From positions 1 to 44,244 of the forward strand of contig CABMEP010000051.1 of the NCBI GenBank assembly GCA_902385155.1: DNA of 44,244 nucleotides, in the 5' to 3' direction. Numbering within the stretch: the stretch's first letter is position 1; each line of letters starts with the position of its first letter. Below the pieces are notes generated by a model. That model was given only the letters and a program-made list of their open reading frames with translations, ran no database searches and had not been told where the DNA came from. The translations under genes and the position numbers were made by a program. This stretch comes from an uncultured archaeon (GTDB lineage Archaea > Micrarchaeota > Micrarchaeia > CABMEP01). This document shows, piece after piece, positions 6,281-39,274 of this stretch.

Positions 6281-6589
6281 ATGGCGTTCGTGCTCGTATA
6301 CATCACGCACAAGAACAAAGCTGAGGCCAGGAAAGTGGTCTCCCGCCTCCTGAAGAGAAGGCTGGTCGCCTGCGCCAACATATTCCCCATTGAAAGCCAC
6401 TACCGGTGGAAAGGCAGGATAGAACAGGCCAAGGAGATCGTAACGGTCCTCAAGACCAAAAAGGAGAATTGGAACAAAGTGAGGGCGGAAGTGGAGAGGA
6501 TCCATCCGTACGAAGTGCCCTGCATCATGAGACTGGATGCCGAGGCGAACCCATCCTACGAATCCTGGATTAGAAAAGAAACTAGATGA
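6281..6589 (+). CDS. cutA: divalent-cation tolerance protein CutA
   Basis: 102 aa. RLVACANIFPIESHYRWKGRIE...HPYEVPCI is the CutA1 signature. Confidence 0.9.
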   Translation: MAFVLVYITHKNKAEARKVVSRLLKRRLVACANIFPIESHYRWKGRIEQAKEIVTVLKTKKENWNKVRAEVERIHPYEVPCIMRLDAEANPSYESWIRKETR

Positions 6590-6603
6590 ATATAGTTAAC
6601 AAT

Positions 6604-7329
6604 TCAAAGTAGCGTATCTTTTTGTATTCTCATTACAAAATCATATCGCTGATTGCGTTTAGAATCAATTTGAATTTCGAAGGTATAATCTTTAATCGTC
6701 TTAGCGATTTCAGATATAGCTTGAGACGCGATTGATTGTGGTTTTTGTCCTCGGCTAAATACAATTACAGCATTAGGGAGAGTTATCAGTCTTATCTCTA
6801 GCGCTTTTGATACTTCTTTAATGGTTGATTCAGACTTAACAAAAATAACATACCGATCTATATCAGTGAGCACAGTTTGGACTCCGTTTTCTAATTCTTT
6901 CTCATTCGAAGTGGTTCCCAATAAAAGATTGATATATCGAGTAAATGTTCCAGTTAAAACTAATTCTGCAACATGAAGACCAGATTTACCGAATTCACTT
7001 AGGATTACTTGTTTGAGATGATCCTGTTTCTTTCTGTTTCCTCTCTCTTCCAATCTCATTAGTGCAAATCCCATCTCAATCTGAAGGCGAATATTTCGGT
7101 TCTTAATGTATTTACGGAATAGTTCGAATTCTGGTTTTTGTCTCTCACTTTTGACAACGTTTATGGTTTCTTGATCTCCAATAAAGGCTAATTCTCCATT
7201 TTGAAATCGTTTGATTAGGTCTTTTATCTGAGTTGAACTTAAGACAGCTTCAGTAACGCCTTTAGCTACTCCTTTAGCTGCACTTTCAACTGGATCAGGT
7301 GAAAACGAGCCTTCAGAGGACATCTCCAT
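6604..7329 (-). CDS. hypothetical protein (241 aa) in AT-rich island
   Basis: Long ORF in ~33% GC DNA, Lys/Glu/Ile-rich. Its start overlaps the upstream 80-aa ORF by 17 nt. No motif recognised. Confidence 0.6.
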   Translation of the reverse strand: MEMSSEGSFSPDPVESAAKGVAKGVTEAVLSSTQIKDLIKRFQNGELAFIGDQETINVVKSERQKPEFELFRKYIKNRNIRLQIEMGFALMRLEERGNRKKQDHLKQVILSEFGKSGLHVAELVLTGTFTRYINLLLGTTSNEKELENGVQTVLTDIDRYVIFVKSESTIKEVSKALEIRLITLPNAVIVFSRGQKPQSIASQAISEIAKTIKDYTFEIQIDSKRNQRYDFVMRIQKDTLL

Positions 7330-7555
7330 ACTCCTCTAAATAAGAAGCGATACTTAGTTCATTATCATCAAGAATTAGTGTGCTTCCAGGAAGAATAAGC
7401 ATGTTTGAAATTTTAACTTCTACGTTGGCATATTTGTCCTTAACTCTGTTACCTAATGAATCAACAACATATTCGCCGTGAACACCGTAGCCCAATTGCT
7501 TAAGTAGCTCTACTTTAACGGGCTTAGGCAGACTTTTAATAGATATTTTTTCCAT
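7313..7555 (-). CDS. hypothetical small protein (80 aa) in AT-rich island
   Basis: First ORF of the overlapping pair, with the same composition as its partner. No motif recognised. Confidence 0.5.
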   Translation of the reverse strand: MEKISIKSLPKPVKVELLKQLGYGVHGEYVVDSLGNRVKDKYANVEVKISNMLILPGSTLILDDNELSIASYLEEYGDVL

Positions 7556-7613
7556 GGCTGTCGCCTAGATAACCTTACAACTGCGCCTTCCTTTTAAAGA
7601 TATCGGTTAGCAA

Positions 7614-7793
7614 TTACATCGACTTGTACTTGCTTCTCTTGTCCAGGTTGCTCCAGCAGTCCTTGCAGATGACGAGATGCTTCGTCTTCTCCGGCTTCTT
7701 GGAGGACTTGGTGCAGTTGACGCAGACATTCCTGTCGCAGAAGATGTCCTTCTCTAAGAAGTGGACTTCCTTCTTGCATCGTTCGCACATCAT
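7614..7793 (-). CDS. 59-aa zinc-ribbon protein (below the ORF-track length cutoff)
   Basis: Hand translation gives MMCERCKKEVHFLEKDIFCDRNVCVNCTKSSKKPEKTKHLVICKDCWSNLDKRSKYKSM*. It has CxxC, CxxC and CxxC pairs, an ATG start and a TAA stop. Confidence 0.55.
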   Translation of the reverse strand: MMCERCKKEVHFLEKDIFCDRNVCVNCTKSSKKPEKTKHLVICKDCWSNLDKRSKYKSM

Positions 7794-7959
7794 GAAATCA
7801 CCATAAACTGTCAGTCGCTGTCTCTGGCATAGACCAGAATAAGGATGACGCTACTAGAAGGTAGAGAAGGTATAAAAGCATATTCACGCAAGCTTATTTC
7901 ACTCATTCCTGACGCGACCAACGACAGGACCAGAACCATCACCAGCAAAGGCGACACAC

Positions 7960-8406
7960 ATGAAAGACGTATCAAATATCTCCAAGTCGTTCACCTGCGA
8001 GTGCGGAACGGTGAACAAGTTCGAGTTCGAGACTGATTTTGACGTGCATGACGTCACCATGGTGGTGCGCTGCCAGGAATGCAACCGGGAGAAGAATATC
8101 AGCATGCTCAGCTTCTTCAAGCGGAACGCCCCGGGAATGGACCAGCCGTTCAGCCCGCTCGCGAGCCCGGCCCAGCCCATGAGCCAGTCCATATTCAGCG
8201 ACGCGATCATACCGATGGGAGACATGATCGCGGGCATGGAACCGCAGCAGGAGCAGCAGGCTGCGCCGCAGGGAAGCGTCATAGACCTGCTCAGCCCACC
8301 GGTCGTGACGCAGCAGAAACCACAACAGGCCCGGGAATCCGACGAGGATGACGACCTGTCCTACGAGGAGAAGGAAGCGTTCTCCGATCTCTTCGGCAAG
8401 CTCTGA
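7960..8406 (+). CDS. zinc-ribbon protein with Q/P-rich linker and acidic C-terminus
   Basis: N-terminal CxC...CxxC (FTCECG...RCQECN) is followed by low-complexity PQQEQQAAPQ and the acidic tail ESDEDDDLSYEEKEAF. Confidence 0.6.
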   Translation: MKDVSNISKSFTCECGTVNKFEFETDFDVHDVTMVVRCQECNREKNISMLSFFKRNAPGMDQPFSPLASPAQPMSQSIFSDAIIPMGDMIAGMEPQQEQQAAPQGSVIDLLSPPVVTQQKPQQARESDEDDDLSYEEKEAFSDLFGKL

Positions 8407-8437
8407 TCCGCTCTCGTCCGCTTTTTGATCAAAAGGG

Positions 8438-9259
8438 CTAGATACGCTGCCAGACGCCGAACATCTGATAGTCGCAGCATGCCTGCCTGTCTAATCTGCG
8501 TCCGAGGCCGGCGCAGCCCGCCCGCCTGAACATCGAGCCGTTTTCTATCTCCCAGGTCCCGATATCGAAATGTGTCGGGTGGATCAGCAGGAACCCGCCC
8601 GGCGCCAGCACCCTGTGTATCTCCCTTAACGCGTCCGAGTCCCTTATTCCGTCGAGAGGGATCATCGCCAGGGCGTATGAGGAGACCACGGCGTCGAAGA
8701 ACCCGTCAGCGAATGGAAGCGAGTACCCATTGCCCTCTCCGCTCGGGACAACGAGGTTCCTCACCCCGAAGAACGTGCCGATGGATACCGCGAACTCGTC
8801 CGTGTCGGCGCCCCAGGAATCGAGCCCCAGGTCTTTCCTCATCCAGGCCGCAAGCCAGCCGACATTGCAGCAGAAGTCGAGAACCTTGCCCACTTTGCTG
8901 CCCAGAGGGCAACGGTGGAACCTGGCGATCCCGTCGAGCACGGGCGACTGGGTGTCCAAGAGCTCTCCGTGGGACAGCGCCGTGACCCCGCCGAACGCGG
9001 CCTCCCAGCAGCCGACGGGCCTCGCGACATCGAGGAAGGGCAGCCTGCGCCCTATGCTCTCCTCGAACGCGATCAGCTCTCCGATATCGGCGCAGCCGTA
9101 CTGCTCCCTGCTGAAGAAGAACGCTAGATCGGAGAACAGCTTGCGCCTCGCCTTCTCGTCAGCGATGTCGTTGATGCTCTCGAGCTTGGGCAACAGGCTG
9201 CGGGCGAGCCGCCTCTGCTCGCTCACGCCCGACATGGCGCGACCGCCCATCTTTTCCAT
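8438..9259 (-). CDS. class I SAM-dependent methyltransferase
   Basis: Motif I-like VLDFCCNVGW and post-motif FFDAVVSSYALAMIP...LAPGGFLLI. The start is set at ATG 9259 (MEKMGG) because a TATA box lies 22-29 nt upstream. The track extension to 9397 is unlikely. Confidence 0.8.
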   Translation of the reverse strand: MEKMGGRAMSGVSEQRRLARSLLPKLESINDIADEKARRKLFSDLAFFFSREQYGCADIGELIAFEESIGRRLPFLDVARPVGCWEAAFGGVTALSHGELLDTQSPVLDGIARFHRCPLGSKVGKVLDFCCNVGWLAAWMRKDLGLDSWGADTDEFAVSIGTFFGVRNLVVPSGEGNGYSLPFADGFFDAVVSSYALAMIPLDGIRDSDALREIHRVLAPGGFLLIHPTHFDIGTWEIENGSMFRRAGCAGLGRRLDRQACCDYQMFGVWQRI

Positions 9260-9280
9260 GTGATAGTGGGGCGTTTGGCG

Positions 9281-9288
9281 TATATAAC
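9281..9288 (-). promoter_or_regulatory. TATA box for the methyltransferase gene
   Basis: The minus strand reads GTTATATA, 22-29 nt upstream of ATG 9259. Confidence 0.5.
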
Positions 9289-9376
9289 CCTGCCGAGAAA
9301 GGAGGAAAACGGGACTCGTGCCCCTAGCCCGGGCCGATGCGAGCCAGGTCGGGAACGGGAGCCGAGGTCGCTCCAA

Positions 9377-9384
9377 TTTTAAAT
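9377..9384 (+). promoter_or_regulatory. TATA box for alaS
   Basis: TTTTAAAT begins 29 nt upstream of ATG 9406, a leaderless-type spacing. Confidence 0.55.
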
Positions 9385-9405
9385 CTTTAACTCCCATCTC
9401 ATACC

Positions 9406-11217
9406 ATGAAGCCTCTTACTTCAAGGCAGCTGAAGCAGCTGTACTTGAGGTTCTTCAAGGAGAAAGGCCATGCGATCATACCTTCAGCATCGCTCGTGCC
9501 CGAGAACGACCCGACTGTGCTGTTCACCACGGCAGGCATGCACCCTCTGGTGCCTTTCCTCCTGGGACAGCCCCATCCGTTGGGCAGGAGATTGGCGAAC
9601 GCCCAGAAATGCATAAGGACGCAGGACATCGACGAGGTCGGCGACGAGACGCATACGACCTTCTTCGAGATGATGGGCAACTGGAGCCTCGGGGATTACT
9701 TCAAGGACGAGGCGATAGGGATGAGCCACGAGTTCCTGCTGTCGAAGGATTGGCTGGACCTCGATCCCGAGAGACTGTCCGTGACATGCTTCGTCGGGGA
9801 TGGAGACGCCCCGAAGGACGAGGAGGCAGCGGGGATATGGATGAAACTTGGCGTGCCCAAGGAAAGGATAGCGTTCCTGCCCAAGAAGGACAACTGGTGG
9901 GGCCCCGCGGGCAGCACCGGACCATGCGGGCCGGATACTGAGATGTTCTACTGGACGCCGAATGACATTCCTGCGCCCAAAGTGTTCGACCCGAAAGACA
10001 AGAGATGGGTCGAGATATGGAACGACGTCTTCCTGCAGTACAACAAGAACAAGGAAGGCAGGTATGAGCCGCTGCGGATGAGGAACGTCGACACGGGACT
10101 GGGCCTGGAGAGGGTGACGATGATCCTCCAAGGCAAGACGAACATATTCGACATAGAATCGTTCAAGCCCGTGATCGAGAAGATCGTCTCTCTCTCAGGA
10201 CAGGGGATTACCGAAGGGAACAGGAGATCGTTCAGGATCATAGCCGACCACATGAGGGCCGCGACGTTCATACTCGGTGACGAGAAGGGGATCGCGCCGT
10301 CGAACGTGGACCAGGGGTACATCCTTAGGCGGTACATAAGGCGGTGCGTCAGGCACGGCAGGCTTCTCGGGATAGAGGAGGACTTCTGCAGGGATGTGGC
10401 AGGCATCGTCATAGACATCCACAAGGGAGACTACCCTGAACTGGAGAAGAACAAGCAGTTCGTGCTCACGGAGCTGGATAAGGAAGAGAACCGGTTCAAG
10501 GAGACATTGGACGCAGGGATCGGGTTCTTCAACAAGATCGCGGACGGGAAGAGGGCGGTCTCCGGCAAGGACGCCTTCCTGCTGTTCCAATCGCACGGCT
10601 TCCCTGTGGAGATGACGAAGGAGCTGATGCAGGAGAAGGGTCTGCAGATCAGCGCGAGTTTCGACAAGGAATTCGACGAGGAATTCCAGAGGCATCAGGA
10701 GCTCTCCAGGCTGGCGACGGAGAAGAAGTTCAAGAGCGGACTCGCCGACACCCAGATGGAGACGATCAAGCTCCACACCGCCACCCACCTGCTGCATGCC
10801 GCGCTGAAGAAGGTGCTGGGGCCCGATGTCAACCAGAAAGGGAGCAACATCACGGTCGAGCGGCTCAGGTTCGACTTCTCGTACGACAAGAAGGTTACTC
10901 CGGAGCAGCTGAAGCAAGTGGAAGACATGGTCAACGAGGCCATAAGGAAGAAGATGACGGTTATCAGGGAAGAGATGACGATCGAAGAGGCGAAGGCCGA
11001 AGGGGCCACCGCTTTGTTCGCAGGCAAATACGGCGAGAAGGTGTCCGTCTATTCCGCCGGGGATTTCTCGAAGGAGGTGTGCACCGGTCCGCACGTGGGC
11101 AACACCGGCGAGCTGGGGCATTTCAGGATCCTGAAGGAGGAATCGGTCGCCGCGGGGATAAGAAGGATAAAGGCGATCGTCGCCCCCGAACCGGAACAGA
11201 AATACATGAGCCATTGA
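9406..11217 (+). CDS. alaS: alanyl-tRNA synthetase, short form (603 aa, no C-Ala domain)
   Basis: FFKEKGHAIIPSASLVPENDPTVLFTTAGM and FFEMMGNWSLGDYFK are present. Editing-domain ligands are HTATHLLH and CTGPHV. The ORF ends ~35 aa after the editing domain. Confidence 0.9.
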   Translation: MKPLTSRQLKQLYLRFFKEKGHAIIPSASLVPENDPTVLFTTAGMHPLVPFLLGQPHPLGRRLANAQKCIRTQDIDEVGDETHTTFFEMMGNWSLGDYFKDEAIGMSHEFLLSKDWLDLDPERLSVTCFVGDGDAPKDEEAAGIWMKLGVPKERIAFLPKKDNWWGPAGSTGPCGPDTEMFYWTPNDIPAPKVFDPKDKRWVEIWNDVFLQYNKNKEGRYEPLRMRNVDTGLGLERVTMILQGKTNIFDIESFKPVIEKIVSLSGQGITEGNRRSFRIIADHMRAATFILGDEKGIAPSNVDQGYILRRYIRRCVRHGRLLGIEEDFCRDVAGIVIDIHKGDYPELEKNKQFVLTELDKEENRFKETLDAGIGFFNKIADGKRAVSGKDAFLLFQSHGFPVEMTKELMQEKGLQISASFDKEFDEEFQRHQELSRLATEKKFKSGLADTQMETIKLHTATHLLHAALKKVLGPDVNQKGSNITVERLRFDFSYDKKVTPEQLKQVEDMVNEAIRKKMTVIREEMTIEEAKAEGATALFAGKYGEKVSVYSAGDFSKEVCTGPHVGNTGELGHFRILKEESVAAGIRRIKAIVAPEPEQKYMSH

Positions 11218-11285: not shown

Positions 11286-11358
11286 GGCCCTATAGTCGAA
11301 TGGTTAAGACGCCACTCTCACACAGTGGAGACTGGGAGTTCGATCCTCCCTGGGGCCA
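11286..11358 (+). tRNA. tRNA-Val(CAC)
   Basis: Hand-folded cloverleaf. The acceptor GGCCCUA/UGGGGCC has 7 bp, the anticodon stem is CCACU/AGUGG, the loop is CUCACAC and the T arm is GGGAG-UUCGAUC-CUCCC. The discriminator is A and no CCA is encoded. Confidence 0.9.
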
Positions 11359-11394: not shown

Positions 11395-11754
11395 ATGCCG
11401 TTATACCATCCAGGCAAGATCATCGCAGTGTACAGCCCGACATCCAAGGACGTCGCCGGCTCGGACAGCGGGACGCAGGCGCTCGTGGAGATGTGGGACG
11501 AGAACGTGTTCACGTGCGACGTCGAGAAGGCGATCGCCCCGAAGCTGAAGGAAGGGGATGTCGTGCTCATAGACTACAGCCCGGTGTCGCCGAAGATGAT
11601 GATACCGAAGCAGTCGGTGGTGAAGATACTGCGCGGCCCCATAGCGAAGAAGACTATGGAGAAGTACGCAGAGATCCACAGGAAACGAAAGGCGCATGAG
11701 ACGTCTTCCCAGAGGATGCCCCCGCAGCAGCCGCCATCGCAGCTGTACGGGTAA
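11395..11754 (+). CDS. hypothetical protein (119 aa)
   Basis: ORF with host-like composition between two tRNA genes. It has a basic/Q-P-rich C-terminus. No motif recognised. Confidence 0.5.
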   Translation: MPLYHPGKIIAVYSPTSKDVAGSDSGTQALVEMWDENVFTCDVEKAIAPKLKEGDVVLIDYSPVSPKMMIPKQSVVKILRGPIAKKTMEKYAEIHRKRKAHETSSQRMPPQQPPSQLYG

Positions 11755-11767
11755 CGCTGACACAGAG

Positions 11768-11873
11768 GCCCCGATCGTCTAGTCCGGTCAAGGACGTAGC
11801 CCTCTCAGAAATCTCCTCGGAAGGGGAGGTCCGGAGAAAGGCTAAAACCCGGGTTCAAATCCCGGTCGGAGCA
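11768..11873 (+). tRNA. tRNA-Glu(CUC) with 31-nt intron at 37/38
   Basis: The D arm is GUCU-AGUCCGGUCA-GGAC and the anticodon stem is UAGCC/GGCUA. The loop CUCUCA|intron|A gives anticodon CUC. The T arm is CCGGG-UUCAAAU-CCCGG. The acceptor GCCCCGA/UCGGAGC has one C3.A70 mismatch. Confidence 0.85.
11808..11838 (+). other. tRNA-Glu intron (canonical position)
   Basis: The intron is GAAAUCUCCUCGGAAGGGGAGGUCCGGAGAA, with an internal hairpin CUCCUC/GGGGAG. Its 3' GGAGA is complementary to the anticodon region. Confidence 0.75.
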
Positions 11874-12692
11874 TTTAAGTGGCTTAGCGAAGCGATCACC
11901 CGAAATTTACTGTCTCTTTCTCTTCTTATATCAACAATCGTTGAATTAAACATGCTCGAGCAAACGCCTGAGATGGCTGAGGTCTGCGGTGCATTCATAG
12001 GCGATGGCTGGATAGAATCCAGACAGACATCAATGTACATAACGGGCAATCTAACCGAAGATAGACGGTACTATGATGGACACCTCTCCAAAATATTTTC
12101 GCACAATATAGGCGAAGTAACCCCGAAGGAGTTCCCATACTGGCATGTGTATGGGATAGGTTTCCATAAAAAGAATGTCATTAGGCAATTATCAGAATTT
12201 GGCTTTGTTTCTGGAAGAAAGAATAGAATAACAAGAATACCTGAATGGATAATGAACTCAAAAGATGAACGTATCCAATATTCAGCGCTAAGAGGCATTT
12301 TCGACACGGACGGTTCGTTTTATTGTAAACGAAATTATAGTAAAACCAGCAACACCTGGCGTTTAAGATATCATTGGCAACCGAGAATTCGCATAGGCGT
12401 CGTTTCACCTGGGCTTATTGAAGATATCAAAACAATCGTAGATCGATTTGGAATCAGCTACTCTAATCCGAGTCCACGACCGCCTAGAAAGAGCAATGAA
12501 CAGCCCGCTTATCTGTTTGAGATAAACTCGGTTGAAAATATCAAACGATGGTTCAACGAGATAAAACCAGCTAATTCTAGACAAACCACCAGATATGGGG
12601 TATGGAGAAAGTTTGGGTTCTTACCGCCAAATACAACCCTTGAAGAAAGGAATAAGATAATAGCTGATGAAATAGATGTATACAGTTATTAC
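11874..12692. mobile_element. AT-rich insertion carrying a LAGLIDADG homing endonuclease gene
   Basis: GC is 18/60 at 12181-12240. It lies exactly between two complete tRNA genes. TCTCTTTCT occurs at 11913-11921 and 12800-12808, and a degenerate tRNA-Leu 5'-like stretch lies at 11881-11903. Confidence 0.45.
11925..11932 (+). promoter_or_regulatory. TATA-like box for the endonuclease gene
   Basis: CTTATATC is centred ~24 nt upstream of ATG 11952. Confidence 0.45.
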
Positions 12693-12764
12693 GCAGGGGT
12701 ATCGAAGCGGTCAAACGAGGCAGTCGTTAAAAAAACGGCCTTTACTCAAGATCTGCTCCCTTAG
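11952..12764 (+). CDS. LAGLIDADG-family homing endonuclease (two-motif, monomeric type)
   Basis: The two motifs are VCGAFIGDGW and LRGIFDTDGSFY, about 100 aa apart. The last ~24 codons are read from the tRNA-Leu gene sequence (12693-12764). Confidence 0.8.
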   Translation: MLEQTPEMAEVCGAFIGDGWIESRQTSMYITGNLTEDRRYYDGHLSKIFSHNIGEVTPKEFPYWHVYGIGFHKKNVIRQLSEFGFVSGRKNRITRIPEWIMNSKDERIQYSALRGIFDTDGSFYCKRNYSKTSNTWRLRYHWQPRIRIGVVSPGLIEDIKTIVDRFGISYSNPSPRPPRKSNEQPAYLFEINSVENIKRWFNEIKPANSRQTTRYGVWRKFGFLPPNTTLEERNKIIADEIDVYSYYAGVSKRSNEAVVKKTAFTQDLLP

Positions 12765-12796
12765 TGGGTTCGAGAGTTCGAATCTCTCCCCCTGCA
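12693..12796 (+). tRNA. tRNA-Leu(CAA), type II, with 20-nt intron in the anticodon stem (30/31)
   Basis: The acceptor is GCAGGGG/CCCCUGC and the D arm is UCG-...GG...-CGA. The anticodon stem GCAG[intron]A pairs with UCUGC, and the loop is CUCAAGA. The long variable arm is UCCCUUAGUGGGUUC, the T arm is GAGAG-UUCGAAU-CUCUC and the discriminator is A. Confidence 0.8.
12724..12743 (+). other. non-canonical tRNA-Leu intron
   Basis: The intron is UCGUUAAAAAAACGGCCUUU. Removing it is the only way to restore a 5-bp anticodon stem and a 7-nt loop with U33. Confidence 0.7.
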
Positions 12797-12807
12797 CTCT
12801 CTCTTTC

Positions 12808-15339
12808 TTAATGGAATATCCGCTTCCACGTCTCTGAAACCAGGAAAGGGATCATCGATAGGAGAAGAGCGATGAGCACGTCGTTCTGGGTCAGCGGAAT
12901 GATGCTGAAGACCGTCTGCGCTACGGAGGAACTGCCTAGGATCGTCCAGCCCACCAATGTGACCAGCATCGCGACGAGCAGGCTGTTGTTGGACGCGAGC
13001 TTCGACAACGATGCCCTCCCCTTGCCTGCGAGCTCGCCGGCGACCAGGAACGCCTCTCCGAAGATCAGCAGGGTGAACGCGAGGCTCCTCGCATGGGTCT
13101 CCCCTTTCGCCATCCCGGACGAATACGCCAGCAGGCAGAGCAGGAACAGGAGCGTGCCCTCGACCACCAGGCGAAGGACTGATTTGGTCTCTATGAACGG
13201 CGCATCGCGCTTGCGCGGAGGCCTGAGCATGACATCCGCCTCGGCCGGCTCGCGCTGGAACACGATCGATATCACGGGATGCAGGAACAGCTCGAGGAAT
13301 ATGATGTGTATCGGCATCAGCAGCAGGGGCATGCCCAGCAGAGGTATGACGAATGCGGACAGGAATATCGGCACATGGAAAGCGACGAGGTAGCTGAACG
13401 CCTTCTTCAGGTTGTCGTAGATCACCCTTCCCTGGCGTATCGCCTTGACTATGGTGACGAAATTGTCGTCGAGCAGCACGATCGCGGCCGCTTCCCTGGC
13501 GACTTCCGTGCCTCTCTTGCCCATGGCGACGCCTATGTCTGCGCGCTTGAGCGCCGGGGCGTCGTTCACCCCGTCTCCCGTGACCGCGACCGTGTCTCCC
13601 TGCTCCTGCAGGCTCGAGACGATAGTCAGTTTTTGCTCGGGAAGCACGCGCGAGAACACGTTGTGACTAGCGATGGACCGCGCCAGCCCGTCCTTCGGCA
13701 CCGCGGCCAGTTCCGATCCCTCCATGTGATCGATCCTGCTGAAACCGATGGAATGCGCTATTGCCCTCGCGGTCGCCTTGTGGTCGCCGGTCAGCATCAT
13801 CACGCGTATGCCTGCGGCGTCGCAGTCCTTGATCGATTCCGGAACGCCTTGGCGGACCGGATCGGAGAACGCGAGCAGCGCCAGGAACCCCATCCCTTCC
13901 TCGTCCCTCTTCCTTCCCTGTATCGAATCCAGCGGCTTGCAGGCGAGAGCGAGCATGCGCATTCCCTGCTTCGCCATCCTGTCGTGCGCCTTCTCGATCT
14001 CCTGCCTGGCCTCGTCGCTGATGTCGCACTGGCGGAGGATGCCCTCGATCGATCCTTTCGCATACAGCTTGAACTTCCCGCCGTATCTCCATACGTTGGA
14101 GACGAAGCGGTTCTTGCTGTCGAACGAGTATTCCACTTCCAATGCGCGCTTGAACTGCATGTCCTCGGGGGCGCGGAAGCGCCCGGCGTATTCGAATATA
14201 GATTTCTCCATGGGGTCGGAAGGCTTCCTCTCGCACGCGAGCACCGCCGCCTCGAGCACCTCTCTCGTGCGCGAATGGGCCAGGAACTCGTCCGCGGAAT
14301 TGACGTAACCATCATAATAGACGTTGGTGAGCGTCATCCGTCCCGTCGTCAGCGTGCCTGTCTTGTCCGAGCATATCACGCTCACGCTGCCGAGCGTCTC
14401 CACCGCGGCCATCCGCTTCACGAGCGCGTTGACATAGGCGAGGGACCACGCGCCCAGGCTGAGGAACAGGGCGAACGTGACCGGGAACTCCTCCGGTATC
14501 ACCGCGATCGCCAGGCTGACCGCGTCGAGGAGCGCAGCGGGCCACTGCTTGCCCGCCACGACGATCTGGATAGAGAAGAGGAACAGGAAGAGGAAAGCGG
14601 CGATGATCCCTATGAACGTGATTATCTGGTCTATGTTCTTCTGGAGCGGCGTCTTGGCGGTCTCTATCCTGGAGAGCATCCCGCCGATGTGGCCGTATTG
14701 AGTCTCCAATCCCGTCTTGAACGTGACGCATCGGGCGTGGCCCCCCAGGACTGTCGTGCCCGCGAAGACGACGTTGCGGTTGTTGAACACCTCTTCGGAG
14801 AAGCTGTCCGCGCGCTCCTTCTCCACCAGCATCGATTCCCCTGAAAGCGCGGACTCGTCGACTTTCAGGTAAGAGGATTCCAGCACCACCGCATCGGCGG
14901 GGATCACCTCTCCCTCATGGACGATGAACACGTCTCCCCGGACGATCTCCGCGCTGTCTGCCTCGAATTCCATCCCCCCGCGCACCACCCTCGCGCGAGG
15001 AGAGGCGATCTGTCGGAGCTTCTCCAGCGCGTTCTCGGTCTGGTACGCGATGACAGCATCGATCGCGGCGATGGGGATTGCCGCGAGCAGCATGAGCCAG
15101 GCGTCGAACTGGTCGCCGAGCATGAAGTAGATCGCCGCCGCCCCGACGAGAAGCCAGAGCATCGGCTCCTTGAAGAACGCGAGCAATGAGGAAAAGGCGC
15201 TGGATGTCTTCTTTGGCGTGATCTCGTTCCTTCCATCGCGCTCGAGCCGTTGTATGGCTTCCGCTTGCGATATTCCGTTCTTCTCGTCGGTCTCAAGCTC
15301 GCGCAGCAGGTCGCTCACCACGCGCATTTCGTTGCCCAT
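12808..15339 (-). CDS. cation-transporting P-type ATPase (type IIA, Ca2+-ATPase-like)
   Basis: Motifs ICSDKTGTLTTG, TGDHKATA and VTGDGVNDAPALKRADIGVAMG. It has an N-terminal cation-ATPase-N-like segment and multiple TM helices. Confidence 0.85.
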   Translation of the reverse strand: MGNEMRVVSDLLRELETDEKNGISQAEAIQRLERDGRNEITPKKTSSAFSSLLAFFKEPMLWLLVGAAAIYFMLGDQFDAWLMLLAAIPIAAIDAVIAYQTENALEKLRQIASPRARVVRGGMEFEADSAEIVRGDVFIVHEGEVIPADAVVLESSYLKVDESALSGESMLVEKERADSFSEEVFNNRNVVFAGTTVLGGHARCVTFKTGLETQYGHIGGMLSRIETAKTPLQKNIDQIITFIGIIAAFLFLFLFSIQIVVAGKQWPAALLDAVSLAIAVIPEEFPVTFALFLSLGAWSLAYVNALVKRMAAVETLGSVSVICSDKTGTLTTGRMTLTNVYYDGYVNSADEFLAHSRTREVLEAAVLACERKPSDPMEKSIFEYAGRFRAPEDMQFKRALEVEYSFDSKNRFVSNVWRYGGKFKLYAKGSIEGILRQCDISDEARQEIEKAHDRMAKQGMRMLALACKPLDSIQGRKRDEEGMGFLALLAFSDPVRQGVPESIKDCDAAGIRVMMLTGDHKATARAIAHSIGFSRIDHMEGSELAAVPKDGLARSIASHNVFSRVLPEQKLTIVSSLQEQGDTVAVTGDGVNDAPALKRADIGVAMGKRGTEVAREAAAIVLLDDNFVTIVKAIRQGRVIYDNLKKAFSYLVAFHVPIFLSAFVIPLLGMPLLLMPIHIIFLELFLHPVISIVFQREPAEADVMLRPPRKRDAPFIETKSVLRLVVEGTLLFLLCLLAYSSGMAKGETHARSLAFTLLIFGEAFLVAGELAGKGRASLSKLASNNSLLVAMLVTLVGWTILGSSSVAQTVFSIIPLTQNDVLIALLLSMIPFLVSETWKRIFH

Positions 15340-20978: not shown

Positions 20979-21084
20979 TGGGGACACGGGGATTTGAACC
21001 CCGACTTGCAGGTTTCTTCTGCGGCATCCGTTTGGCTTTCGCCGGTCTGGAGCCTGCCGCGCTGCCAAGTTACGCAATATCCCC
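20979..21084 (-). tRNA. tRNA-Trp(CCA) with ~33-nt intron next to the anticodon
   Basis: The acceptor is GGGGAUA/UGUCCCC and the D arm is GCGU-AACUUGGCA-GCGC. The anticodon stem is GCAGG/CCUGC and the loop is CUCCAG|intron|A. The T arm is CGGGG-UUCAAAU-CCCCG and the discriminator is A. Confidence 0.85.
21014..21046 (-). other. tRNA-Trp intron
   Basis: The intron is ACCGGCGAAAGCCAAACGGAUGCCGCAGAAGAA and contains a GGC-GAAA-GCC hairpin. No C/D boxes were seen. The boundary is ambiguous by 1 nt. Confidence 0.7.
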
Positions 21085-36557: not shown

Positions 36558-39134
36558 TCAGAATCCCGGATGCTCCCTGTAGAACCTCGCCTTGAAGAAC
36601 TCCACGAGGCCGAGGTACACGACAACGAATCCCGCCAGCACCAGCAGGAAGTCCATCGGCGGCGGGGTGAATCCGAAATACGCGCCCAGCGGAGTGTACG
36701 GCAGCGCCATGGCGGCCGCGACGACGAGCAGCGAACTGACAGCGAGCAGGAGGCCCGGTCTGCTCTGGTAGAACGGCCTCCTCGTCCTTATGATGAATAT
36801 GATCATGGTCTGGGTGCAGAGCGATTCCATGAACCAGGCGGTCTGGAACAGCGACGCCGACGCGTTGAAGACGAATATCATGACCCCGAACGTGAGAAAA
36901 TCAAACAGCGAGCTGAACGGCCCGAAGAACACCATGAAATCCTTGATGAACTTGACATCCATCCTCTTCGGCTTCTCCACGTACTCCTTGTCCACATTAT
37001 CGGTGGAGATCGTCATCTCCGAGAAGTCGTACAACAGGTTGTTGAGCAGGATTTGTATAGGCAGCATGGGCAAGAAGTTCATGAACAGCGACGCCCCCGC
37101 CGCGCTGAACATGTTGCCGAAATTGGAACTGATGCCCATCTGTATGTACTTCATCGTGTTCCCGAACGTCTTCCGCCCCTCCAGGACGCCGTCATAGAGG
37201 ACGTGCAGCGACTTGTGCAGCAGGATGAGGTCCGCGGACTCCTTCGCGACGTCCACCGCGTTGTTGACGGAGATGCTGACATCCGCCTTCCTCATCGGCG
37301 GCGCGTCGTTGATCCCGTCGCCCAGGAATCCGACAACATGGCCGTTGCGCTTCAGCGCCTCGATGATCCTCTCCTTCTGTATGGGGGTGACGCGCGCGAA
37401 TATGTTCGCCTTCTCCACGGCCTTGGTGAGCGCCTCGTCCGGCAGCCCGGCGATCTCGGATCCGGTGAGTATGCCTTTGATCTTGAACCCGAGCTGCCCG
37501 CAGATGTTCCAGGTGACGAGCTCGTTGTCCCCGGTGAGGACCTTCAATTCGATGCCTGACTTGCTGAGAAGCTGCAGCGACTCCTTCGAAGTCTTCTTCG
37601 GGGGGTCTATGAACGCCACGAACCCGAGGAACACCAGGTCCTTCTCGTCATGGATGGAGTATTCGGTCCTGCCGTCGCTGGGACGGCCATAGGATATCGC
37701 GAGCACGCGGAATCCCTTCTCGCTGAGGTCCTCGTATCTCTTCTCCATCCTCTTCCTGGCGCGGCTGTCGATCTCCACTGCCTTGCCGCTGGACTCGTAT
37801 CTCGAGCATATCCTGAATACGTCCTCCGGAGCGCCCTTCGTCAGTAATATCTTCTCCCTCCCCTTCCTCACCACGACGGAAGAGCGCCTGCGCGCGAAAT
37901 CGAACGGTATCTCGTCCACCTTCAAATGGCCTTTGATGTCCGCCTTCTCATGGGAGATTATCGCCTCGTCAAGGGGGGTACGCAGGCCCGTCTGGTAATA
38001 GCTGTTGAGGAACGAGTAGAGGAACACCTTCTCGCTCTCCTTGCCGTCCATGTCGACGTGGAGGAGCAGGGTGACCTTGTTCTCCGTGAGCGTGCCCGTC
38101 TTGTCGGTGCACAGCGTGTCCATGCTGCCGAAGTTCTGTATCGACGCCAGGCGCTTGACGATGACTCCCTTGTCCGCCATCGCCATCGCGCCCTTCGAGA
38201 GGTTGATCGATAGTATCATCGGCAGGAGCTCCGGCGTGAGACCGACCGCAAGCGCGATCGCGAACAGCAGCGACTCGAGCGGGTTCTGCTTCAATATCGC
38301 CTGTGAGATGAACGCGAACAGCACGAGAAGCATCGTCACCTTCGTGATCATCGCGCCGAACTCCCTCAGCCCCTTGTCGAACTCGGTCTCGGGCCTCCGC
38401 TCCACGGATTCCTTGATGATCGCGCCGTACTCCGTGGAGACGCCGGTCCTCATGACAAGCGCTGTCGCAGTGCCGCTGATGATCGATGTGCCCATGAAGA
38501 GGTAGTTATCCCATCCCGTCACGTCCTGGATCGTGTTCGGCTTCAGCGCGGCCGCGAACTTCTCCGCGGGGAACGACTCGCCCGTGAGCGCGGACTGGTC
38601 CACGAAGAAATCCTTGGCGGAGATGATCCTCGCGTCCGCGGGCACGATGTCCCCGGCAGACAGCATGACGATGTCGCCCGGCACGAGGTCGGAGAGATGC
38701 ACCTCCTCCTTCCTGCCGTCGCGGAATACCTCCGCCATGGTCGCGACACGCTTCTTGAGGGACTCGGCCGCGCGCTCGGCCCTGTATTTCTGCACGAAAT
38801 CCAGGACGACGCTGATGAGCACCATGACGTAGATGATCACCGCGTTGACCACCTCGCCGAGGGCGCCTGATATCGCGCCGGCGATGAGCAGTATGAGGAT
38901 GAGGGGATTGGCGAAATGCGAGAGGAAATCGACCAGCAGCGGGGCCTTCTTCCTCTTGGCCAGCTCGTTGTGGCCGTACAGGGCCTGGCGGCGGTGGATG
39001 TCCTTCTGGCTGAGCCCTGTCCGGGGGTCGGAGCCCAGATCGGACAGGAGCTGCTCTATGGGAGAGCAGAGCATCCTCTTCTTGTCCATCTCCTGCGACT
39101 TGGCCTGCAGTACGGTATCGTTTGGTGCGCCCAT
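36558..39134 (-). CDS. mgtA: Mg2+-transporting P-type ATPase (MgtA type)
   Basis: Motifs CTDKTGTLT, TGDN and LGDGINDAPPMRKADVSISV, plus the MgtA-type NLLYDFSEMTISTDNVD. The start is set at ATG 39134 (MGAPNDT) because the track extension overlaps tRNA-Val. Confidence 0.9.
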   Translation of the reverse strand: MGAPNDTVLQAKSQEMDKKRMLCSPIEQLLSDLGSDPRTGLSQKDIHRRQALYGHNELAKRKKAPLLVDFLSHFANPLILILLIAGAISGALGEVVNAVIIYVMVLISVVLDFVQKYRAERAAESLKKRVATMAEVFRDGRKEEVHLSDLVPGDIVMLSAGDIVPADARIISAKDFFVDQSALTGESFPAEKFAAALKPNTIQDVTGWDNYLFMGTSIISGTATALVMRTGVSTEYGAIIKESVERRPETEFDKGLREFGAMITKVTMLLVLFAFISQAILKQNPLESLLFAIALAVGLTPELLPMILSINLSKGAMAMADKGVIVKRLASIQNFGSMDTLCTDKTGTLTENKVTLLLHVDMDGKESEKVFLYSFLNSYYQTGLRTPLDEAIISHEKADIKGHLKVDEIPFDFARRRSSVVVRKGREKILLTKGAPEDVFRICSRYESSGKAVEIDSRARKRMEKRYEDLSEKGFRVLAISYGRPSDGRTEYSIHDEKDLVFLGFVAFIDPPKKTSKESLQLLSKSGIELKVLTGDNELVTWNICGQLGFKIKGILTGSEIAGLPDEALTKAVEKANIFARVTPIQKERIIEALKRNGHVVGFLGDGINDAPPMRKADVSISVNNAVDVAKESADLILLHKSLHVLYDGVLEGRKTFGNTMKYIQMGISSNFGNMFSAAGASLFMNFLPMLPIQILLNNLLYDFSEMTISTDNVDKEYVEKPKRMDVKFIKDFMVFFGPFSSLFDFLTFGVMIFVFNASASLFQTAWFMESLCTQTMIIFIIRTRRPFYQSRPGLLLAVSSLLVVAAAMALPYTPLGAYFGFTPPPMDFLLVLAGFVVVYLGLVEFFKARFYREHPGF

Positions 39135-39201
39135 GCGTTCAACGGTCGCCGGCCGGGTTGAAAAACATTTTGATATGGCGGAATGCCGGAAGAAAGAGCA
39201 G

Positions 39202-39274
39202 TGGGCCCGGGGAGGATCGAACTCCCAATCTCTACCTTGTAAGGGTAGCGTCTTAGCCATTCGACTACAGGCCC
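39202..39274 (-). tRNA. tRNA-Val(UAC)
   Basis: Hand-folded. The acceptor is GGGCCUG/CGGGCCC, the anticodon stem is CUACC/GGUAG and the loop is CUUACAA. The T arm GGGAG-UUCGAUC-CUCCC is identical to that of tRNA-Val(CAC). Confidence 0.9.

Follow-up and report, generated by a model that had tools for sequence, protein, structure and literature searches.

A LAGLIDADG endonuclease open reading frame (ORF) was analyzed that lies between the tRNA-Glu(CUC) and tRNA-Leu(CAA) genes of an uncultured archaeon, on a 44,244-nucleotide (nt) stretch of contig CABMEP010000051.1, the whole of which is called the window. Comparison with the loci of relatives (numbered Lnnn) reveals a LAGLIDADG gene, apparently functional and catalytically intact, in a free-standing intergenic position, flush with tRNA-Leu and polymorphic between occupied and empty alleles. 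The family to which it belongs is associated with tRNA genes, which its members abut at about half of 80 loci. The product is probably an active, monomeric, two-motif homing endonuclease, free-standing, and one member of a large DPANN family found at tRNA-gene boundaries. The empty sites show that one archaeal LAGLIDADG gene is free-standing; the family that it represents is paired clade by clade with particular tRNA genes.

The endonuclease gene was present in three lineages (the window, L001-L003 and L004) and missing from four (L089, L090/L093, L097 and L129). The occupied lineages have a common order, namely tRNA-Val, a gene for a 119-amino-acid (aa) protein, tRNA-Glu, the 23-mer ATCACCCGAAATYTACTGTCTCT, a TATA box, the LAGLIDADG ORF and tRNA-Leu(CAA) with an intron at position 30/31. 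Among the empty loci, L090/L093 showed the full synteny of the window: alanyl-tRNA synthetase (AlaRS), tRNA-Val, the 119-aa gene, tRNA-Glu, a 66-nt spacer, tRNA-Leu and a P-type ATPase. The spacer between tRNA-Glu and tRNA-Leu is 72 nt long in L089, and in the more distant L097 and L129 the two tRNA genes are 5 nt apart. Both tRNA flanks are conserved across all alleles. Since four endonuclease-less lineages have the same tRNA pair, the gene is a free-standing insert of ~0.8 kb and is not intron- or intein-borne. The original prediction had described an AT-rich insert that separates the two tRNA genes and carries an apparently free-standing LAGLIDADG gene, and had looked to relatives lacking the insert to define the empty site; the four empty lineages, one of them fully syntenic, confirm that the insertion is intergenic. 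The metagenome scan with the 119-aa protein returned only 5 loci, and the further alleles came from AlaRS homologues, among which L094-L096 and L127-L128 differed in synteny and the contig of L126 was too short at this end.

The limits of the insert were determined by alignment of occupied and empty alleles. In blastn of the window against L093, homology ended at 11875 and restarted at 12744. Alignment A2 showed ~20 nt of spacer after tRNA-Glu to be common to occupied and empty alleles, followed by divergence, and the motif YYAGCGRA was found at the same distance from tRNA-Glu (10 nt after it) in the window, L004, L089 and L090. The empty loci L089 and L090 carry a normal tRNA promoter (GGCAAGAGCTAAAAATAC) that ends ~23 nt before tRNA-Leu, and this promoter (GAGCTAAAAATAC) lies at the place now taken by the cassette. 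Judging from these alignments, the ~0.8-kb cassette (about 11895-12692) appears to stand in place of ~45 nt of spacer in which the native promoter of tRNA-Leu was located. The 23-mer at its left end was near-identical in L001-L004 and L088 and occurred once in the window; it was found neither in the empty sites nor in the other 92 loci. Possible roles are those of a regulatory site or of a boundary of the gene-conversion tract.

The insert (11895-12692) has a GC content of 40.1%, well below that of the window (57.7%) and of the flanks (58-60%). The ~30% first ascribed to it is correct for 12181-12240, where the count of 18/60 marks the local minimum, and not for the insert as a whole. The endonuclease gene was poorer in GC than the host locus in all occupied lineages (41% vs 58% in the window, 34% vs 53% in L001 and 33% vs 47% in L004). 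The same arrangement with normal composition, raised at the outset as a sign against an insert, was not seen in the occupied relatives L001-L004, which are still AT-rich (33-34% GC vs 47-53%).

Comparison of the 119-aa protein placed the occupied window and L001 and the empty L090 and L089 in one tight group (85-92% identity), the closest pair being the occupied L001 and the empty L089 (92%). Identities were 70-75% for the occupied L004 and 53-63% for the empty outgroups L129 and L097. Since the tight group mixes hosts with and without the gene, the endonuclease gene is patchily distributed even in very closely related hosts. The synonymous divergence (dS) of the window from L001 was 1.95 for the endonuclease gene and 0.51 for the neighbour gene, a figure that comes from a single 119-codon neighbour and may include a compositional shift; between L001 and L004 the two values agreed (1.53 and 1.55, respectively). 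The AlaRS of the window (603 aa) is 77% identical to a protein of a 'Candidatus Micrarchaeia' metagenome-assembled genome (MAG), its other relatives being from Woesearchaeota, and the host is a DPANN archaeon.

The 270-aa product of the ORF matched PF14528 (LAGLIDADG_3) at 7e-9, and the two LAGLIDADG-type motifs that had been read from the sequence were both present. Residues D18 in IGDGW and D120 in FDTDG are invariant across the 25-member family profile. The AlphaFold2 model of residues 1-255 had a pLDDT of 91.3 and a pTM of 0.87, whereas residues 256-270, in the tRNA-encoded tail, were disordered (pLDDT <50). The pseudo-dimeric alpha-beta-beta-alpha-beta-beta-alpha fold was matched with a Foldseek probability of 1.00 to I-Tsp061I, PI-PfuI, I-SceI and I-DmoI. 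The closest solved structure was I-Tsp061I, both by fold (Foldseek E 1e-9, TM 0.77 on target) and by sequence (E 5.8e-6), followed among the fold matches by intein endonucleases, WhiA, I-SceI and I-DmoI. The protein is 75% and 73% identical to its two closest relatives, those of L001 and L004. The endonuclease gene is under strong purifying selection, with a dN/dS of 0.05-0.09 in the comparisons of the window with L001 and L004, indicating a functional protein and not a decaying pseudogene. An intein-borne endonuclease was ruled out by the gene's own ATG 19 nt after a TATA-like box, the protein length of 247+23 aa and the lack of a Hint domain match. In the scan of IMG/VR for a viral origin only weak partial matches were obtained (22-31% identity).

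A conserved helical extension of ~50 aa was observed beyond the LAGLIDADG core (residues 194-247, nt 12531-12692). Its conserved residues are W200, F201, N208, T213, Y215, W218, G222, PP225-226 and R233, and the shorter family members (~215 aa) end inside it. This extension may be an additional DNA-binding module.

Conservation within the family extends to Tyr247 (nt 12692), the last codon before tRNA-Leu, with whose first base (12693) the ORF is flush. Since the first stop codon is the TAG at 12762-12764, in the variable arm of tRNA-Leu, the last 23 codons (residues 248-270) are read from the tRNA gene. This agrees with the tail of ~24 codons described originally, which on closer reading consists of 23 codons and the stop and extends over the acceptor, the D arm, the anticodon arm with its intron and the start of the variable arm. 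Read-through into tRNA-Leu was also found in L001 (stop within the intron) and L004 (stop within the variable arm). In the family alignment the natural C-terminus reads '...P.S(F/Y)Y' ('...YSYY'), and members that continue past it do so as 'AGV(P/S)(K/E)RSN...', which is the translated 5' end of tRNA-Leu; tails of the 'AGVPKRSNG' type were found in P0004, P0005, P0007 and P0024.

The predicted TATA-like box CTTATATC is present at 11925-11932, and the ATG follows it after 19 nt. Its equivalents in L001 (TTTATAAA) and L004 (TTTTATAT) lie 20-21 nt before the aligned ATG/GTG start. This spacing predicts that the endonuclease mRNA would be leaderless or nearly so. Runs of five or more T are absent from the sense strand of the ORF, and transcription from the endonuclease promoter could therefore continue into tRNA-Leu. 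The sequence was matched by only two low-coverage DNA runs, as 151-nt contigs, with no RNA run among them.

To place the gene in its family, genomes were scanned with the family profile. This gave 203 relatives, the best match being 40-49% identical, and the best 80 of the 203 were kept for analysis of the tRNA context. The 80 loci are mostly labelled DPANN (Woese-, Pace-, Nano-, Iain- and Micrarchaeota); the other labels were Methanosarcinales, bacteria of the candidate phyla radiation and Gammaproteobacteria, which we take to be binning or labelling errors. ARAGORN found a tRNA gene starting at the ORF 3' end in 44 of the 80 loci, with the stop codon mostly 10-50 nt inside the tRNA, compared to 37 of 432 other ORF ends of the same loci. 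Of the 18 ARAGORN calls with an intron, only 9 were confirmed by Rfam with its filters at default, and the family count is therefore given as 35-44 of 80, the conservative figure of 35 being made up of 26 intron-less calls and the 9 Rfam-confirmed ones. Searched against 1.84 billion representatives, the family profile matched 206, 2104 and 5905 clusters at 50% identity with E<=1e-30, 1e-10 and 1e-3, respectively.

In a neighbour-joining tree the protein clades follow the abutting tRNA, which is Leu(CAA), Leu(AAG), Gly(TCC), Thr(GGT), Ile(GAT), His(GTG), Gln(CTG) or Tyr(GTA). The tRNA abutted by the Thr(GGT) and Ile(GAT) clades is found in either orientation, and the conserved C-terminus is always flush with an acceptor-stem end (for example |GCCTCAG against |A-GCCTGTG). 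Such junctions would be expected if the acceptor stem, an inverted repeat in DNA, were recognised as a half-site. In the 37 same-strand loci, near-consensus TATA boxes are concentrated at -37 to -30 from the tRNA +1, inside the ORF, with a summed fraction of 0.47 vs a background of 0.014 per position. The Leu clades spell this internal TATA with the codons for ILKN (ATA-CTT-AAA-AAT); these codons give CTTAAAAA at -35/-33 in relatives, and the equivalent in the window is AATAAGATAATA. Some MAGs (JAHWHY01, PNOQ01) have several family copies beside different tRNAs. We tentatively extend the interpretation to a possible DPANN guild of free-standing LAGLIDADG homing endonucleases, in which each clade would occupy the boundary of one tRNA isoacceptor, flush at the acceptor-stem end with the tRNA left intact, and same-strand members would donate a TATA box, encoded by their last codons, for transcription of the tRNA. 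No description of tRNA-abutting free-standing archaeal LAGLIDADG genes was found in a literature search of incomplete coverage, and this negative is no proof of novelty.

A 5S rRNA gene was observed just upstream of a LAGLIDADG ORF of the family in L008 (573-684) and L034 (2663-2774); genes of other small stable RNAs may thus also be neighbours of some family members.

According to the mechanism that we propose for the window gene, the enzyme would home by cutting empty alleles at or near the 5' boundary of tRNA-Leu, and the break would be mended from an occupied allele. The conserved tRNA-Glu and tRNA-Leu would act as homology arms for copying the ~0.8-kb cassette, in which the ORF is preceded by the conserved left end and by a TATA box of its own. 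Since the protein-coding part ends exactly at the +1 of tRNA-Leu, insertion is proposed to split a target made up of flank plus tRNA, while the essential tRNA would stay intact. The cassette would displace the native tRNA-Leu promoter and take over tRNA-Leu transcription; with the native promoter replaced, tRNA-Leu would have to be transcribed either from the endonuclease promoter, by read-through, or from an A/T-rich box in the last ORF codons. The 23 tRNA-encoded C-terminal residues would be a non-functional tail, present because no stop codon precedes the tRNA.

Several observations weigh against homing at the tRNA-Leu boundary. Since tRNA-Leu is left whole beside the resident gene, the host would cut its own copy if the target were contained entirely in the tRNA. 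No obvious motif is common to the sequences upstream in the empty sites, and any left half-site must therefore be degenerate. The A/T-rich box AATAAGATAATA of the window, 31-42 nt before the tRNA-Leu +1, is weak, with only a 6/8 match to TATA. In the wider family 36-45 of the 80 relatives have no tRNA at the 3' end, and a sister clade (L012, L015 and L017) sits 50-170 nt downstream of tRNA-Leu(CAA). The dS incongruence with the flank depends on one 119-codon neighbour and may be inflated by GC amelioration. Finally, the gene is old at this locus, with dS saturated between the three occupied lineages; such age together with strong purifying selection is unusual for a purely selfish endonuclease and would equally fit a role that benefits the host.

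A host-beneficial role would imply a domesticated LAGLIDADG protein with a tRNA-linked function, such as a WhiA-like DNA-binding regulator or a tRNA expression factor, vertically inherited and occasionally lost. In agreement with this, dN/dS is low (0.05-0.09), the position is kept in three lineages with saturated synonymous sites, WhiA structures are among the top fold matches and the ORF 3' end seems to give promoter-like sequence to the tRNA in many relatives; the additional conserved C-terminal helical region (~50 aa, residues 194-247) also recalls WhiA, in which a C-terminal helical domain is added to a LAGLIDADG scaffold. WhiA, however, is a conserved single-copy bacterial regulator that has lost the catalytic acidic residues, whereas the window protein keeps both Asp residues, which are invariant in its family, and is patchily distributed. 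The gene is missing in hosts 85-92% identical in the flanking gene, which have a normal promoter instead, its foreign composition persists in three hosts, its divergence appears incongruent with that of the flank, and several copies stand beside different tRNAs in JAHWHY01 and PNOQ01. Domestication is thus considered unlikely. Less likely still is a collaborative form of homing, in which the target would be the anticodon stem of an intron-less tRNA-Leu(CAA), and the 30/31 intron would protect the host and spread with the endonuclease gene. The unusual 30/31 intron is indeed found in all three occupied alleles of the clade, the empty L090/L093 has an uninterrupted anticodon stem-loop (and a D-loop insert instead), and the non-homologous tract between the window and L093 reaches 12743, the end of the intron. 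On the other hand, the 5' part of tRNA-Leu in the empty L089 is identical to that of the window, including the start of the 30/31 intron (GGCAG|TCGAT), the occupied relatives L011 and L014 have an intron-less tRNA-Leu(CAA), and about half of the abutting tRNAs across the family have no intron. Strict coupling of intron and endonuclease is contradicted by these three loci. A free-standing endonuclease is reportedly engaged in collaborative homing with an intron at cyanophage psbA; as there, a free-standing endonuclease gene lies in the window beside a gene whose intron could interrupt the target, but intron and endonuclease are inconsistently paired among the loci compared here.

To our knowledge, characterised archaeal LAGLIDADG enzymes are intron- or intein-encoded, and the top match of the window protein, I-Tsp061I, is an intron-encoded enzyme. 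tRNA genes are also classic integration sites, and the left flank of the insert resembles the 5' part of tRNA-Leu at 17/23 positions. It is nevertheless very improbable that the gene is intron-borne after all, in a bulge-helix-bulge (BHB) or group I intron, or that it is the remnant of an integrase-type element in tRNA-Leu. The empty sites place the insert in the spacer between two complete tRNA genes, and no flanking BHB or group I structure, which the original prediction had named as evidence against it, was found. A BHB-intron-encoded endonuclease was ruled out, the insert not being inside an RNA gene, and a group I intron-encoded one was rejected, since Rfam gave no match to Intron_gpI or any other additional RNA family in 11700-12900 even at E<=10. 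An integrated element was likewise rejected: the ~0.8-kb insert holds a single ORF and no integrase, and there is only one LAGLIDADG copy in the window. Moreover, neither the repeat nor the tRNA-like fragment proposed as insertion footprints is conserved in L001 or L004.

The first of these strings, the 9-nt direct repeat TCTCTTTCT (11913 and 12800), is real, but a repeat as good was obtained in 27 of 2000 flank shuffles and it was missing from all related occupied sites. The 17/23 match between 11881 and 12696 was equalled in 2 of 1000 shuffles when ungapped and in 12-14 of 1000 as a local alignment; its first part (YYAGCGRA) is ancestral spacer, also found in endonuclease-less alleles, so that the match straddles the spacer of the empty alleles. 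Both strings were therefore ruled out as insertion footprints, by non-conservation and, for the second, also by overlap with the ancestral spacer.

By ancestry and fold the closest known systems are the archaeal intron-encoded LAGLIDADG enzymes. I-Tsp061I (PDB 2DCH) and I-DmoI are, like the window enzyme, monomeric two-motif proteins of archaeal hosts with both catalytic Asp residues. These enzymes sit in BHB introns of rRNA genes, whereas the window gene is intergenic, has a TATA box of its own and abuts a tRNA gene; its product has the additional conserved C-terminal ~50 aa and a sequence identity of only ~19%. By behaviour, the nearest analogue is SegB of phage T4, an example of 'intronless homing' using tRNA genes. 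SegB is a homing endonuclease whose free-standing gene lies in the tRNA cluster of T4; it is reported to recognise a site that contains the TpsiC stem-loop, a motif conserved in tRNAs, while related phages are without segB, and segB and the flanking tRNA markers are preferentially inherited (PMC2330249). Both genes are free-standing endonuclease genes among tRNA genes. SegB is, however, a phage GIY-YIG enzyme, with no known ORF/tRNA overlap and no known pairing of a family with tRNA isoacceptors, whereas the window gene has the LAGLIDADG fold, a cellular archaeal host and an insertion flush with the tRNA end.

If homing on tRNA-gene ends is true, it would explain an annotation oddity, the ORFs 'reading into' tRNAs in DPANN MAGs, and a major class of archaeal selfish DNA would use tRNA genes as its targets and also as its homology arms. 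In the family, nature would provide a set of related nucleases whose targets differ and can be predicted, and coding sequence would double as tRNA promoter. An arms race with such nucleases could then account for the fast turnover of tRNA introns at odd positions in these lineages. An old idea holds that 'tRNA genes in pieces' serve as protection, tRNA introns and split tRNAs guarding against mobile DNA, and this would become testable.

Table 1. Features of the endonuclease locus in the window
Feature	Position	Strand	Evidence and remarks
tRNA-Glu(CUC)	11768-11873	+	Rfam RF00005, 46.1 bits; canonical 37/38 intron 11808-11838; left conserved flank of insert
Ancestral spacer remnant (10 nt, then TTAGCGAAGCG)	11874-11894	+	Common to endonuclease-less alleles
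Insert-specific conserved left end ATCACCCGAAATTTACTGTCTCT	11895-11917	+	Alignment of occupied vs empty loci
TATA-like box CTTATATC	11925-11932	+	Direct sequence reading; putative promoter
LAGLIDADG endonuclease ORF, 270 codons	11952-12764	+	PF14528, 7e-9
LAGLIDADG motif 1, VCGAFIGDGW (aa 11-20, catalytic Asp18)	11982-12011	+	D18 and G19 invariant in 25 family members
LAGLIDADG motif 2, LRGIFDTDGSFY (aa 113-124, catalytic Asp120)	12288-12323	+	R114, G115, F117, D118 and D120 invariant
A/T-rich box AATAAGATAATA within ORF 3' end	12651-12662	+	Candidate internal tRNA-Leu promoter
tRNA-Leu(CAA)	12693-12796	+	Rfam, 37.7 bits; 20-nt intron 12724-12743; right conserved flank of insert
ORF/tRNA-Leu overlap, 23 sense codons plus TAG	12693-12764	+	Direct sequence reading

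The two flanking tRNA genes were complete, as had been predicted from their ends at 11873 and 12693, according to the Rfam matches and to ARAGORN run on the spliced forms. After removal of its 31-nt intron (position 37/38) tRNA-Glu was read as Glu(CTC), and tRNA-Leu without its 20-nt intron at the non-canonical position 30/31 as Leu(CAA), both with a normal cloverleaf. ARAGORN in default mode overlooked both intron-bearing tRNAs and in intron mode gave the wrong anticodons Ser(aga) and Leu(taa); the assignments were settled by Infernal and splicing by hand. Hand analysis showed that the tRNA-Leu intron fits a BHB-like motif, with the central helix AGGC/GCCU and the bulges AG^U and UU^A, and that the intron of L004 has the compensatory central helix GGGC/GCCC. 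The 30/31 introns of the three occupied lineages are 20, 19 and 14 nt long.

tRNA introns were observed to turn over very fast among close relatives, as compared at window positions 11286-11358, 11808-11838 and 12724-12743, L001 2523-2625, L004 3318-3419, L090 1635-1735, L097 and L129. tRNA-Val(CAC) has no intron in the window, L089 and L090, whereas in L001 and L004 its D loop is followed by an insert of ~29 nt. The tRNA-Glu intron measures 31 nt in the window, ~71 nt in L001 and ~39 nt in L129, and is absent from L004 and L097. For tRNA-Leu(CAA), the window, L001 and L004 have the intron at 30/31, L090 has it in the D loop, and L097 and probably L129 have it at the canonical position. The acceptor stem of tRNA-Glu(CUC) has a C3:A70 mismatch in the window (11768-11873), L001 (3041-3187) and L089 (927-1033), while the genes of L004 (3827-3902) and L090 (1463-1568) have T3 (U3-A70), with an A7:C66 mismatch instead in L090. 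Elsewhere in the window, tRNA-Trp(CCA) with an intron of ~35 nt is found at 20979-21084 on the minus strand. No LAGLIDADG gene lies beside it or beside tRNA-Val(TAC) (39201-39274), and the window has a single member of the family.

The neighbouring genes also vary between alleles. The 119-aa protein (window 11395-11754) had no Pfam match; its gene always lies between tRNA-Val(CAC) and tRNA-Glu(CUC), and the protein is 53-92% identical across seven Micrarchaeia-like lineages. The P-type cation ATPase (843-845 aa) stands between tRNA-Leu and a 403-aa gene in the window (12808-15339, minus strand) and in L090; L001 (4156-5376 compared) and L004 are without it, indicating a second insertion or deletion at this tRNA locus. 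Another P-type ATPase is encoded at 36558-39260 of the window. Upstream of tRNA-Val the window (9406-11217) and L090 have a short, 603-aa, plus-strand copy of AlaRS, whereas at the equivalent place L002 (568-3192) and L004 (615-3257) have an AlaRS of 874-880 aa with a DHHA1 domain on the opposite strand. In L097, a contig from an NCBI Micrarchaeia MAG, a type I CRISPR-Cas set (Cas6, Cas7, Cas5 and Cas3) is located at 6374-10812, directly downstream of AlaRS.

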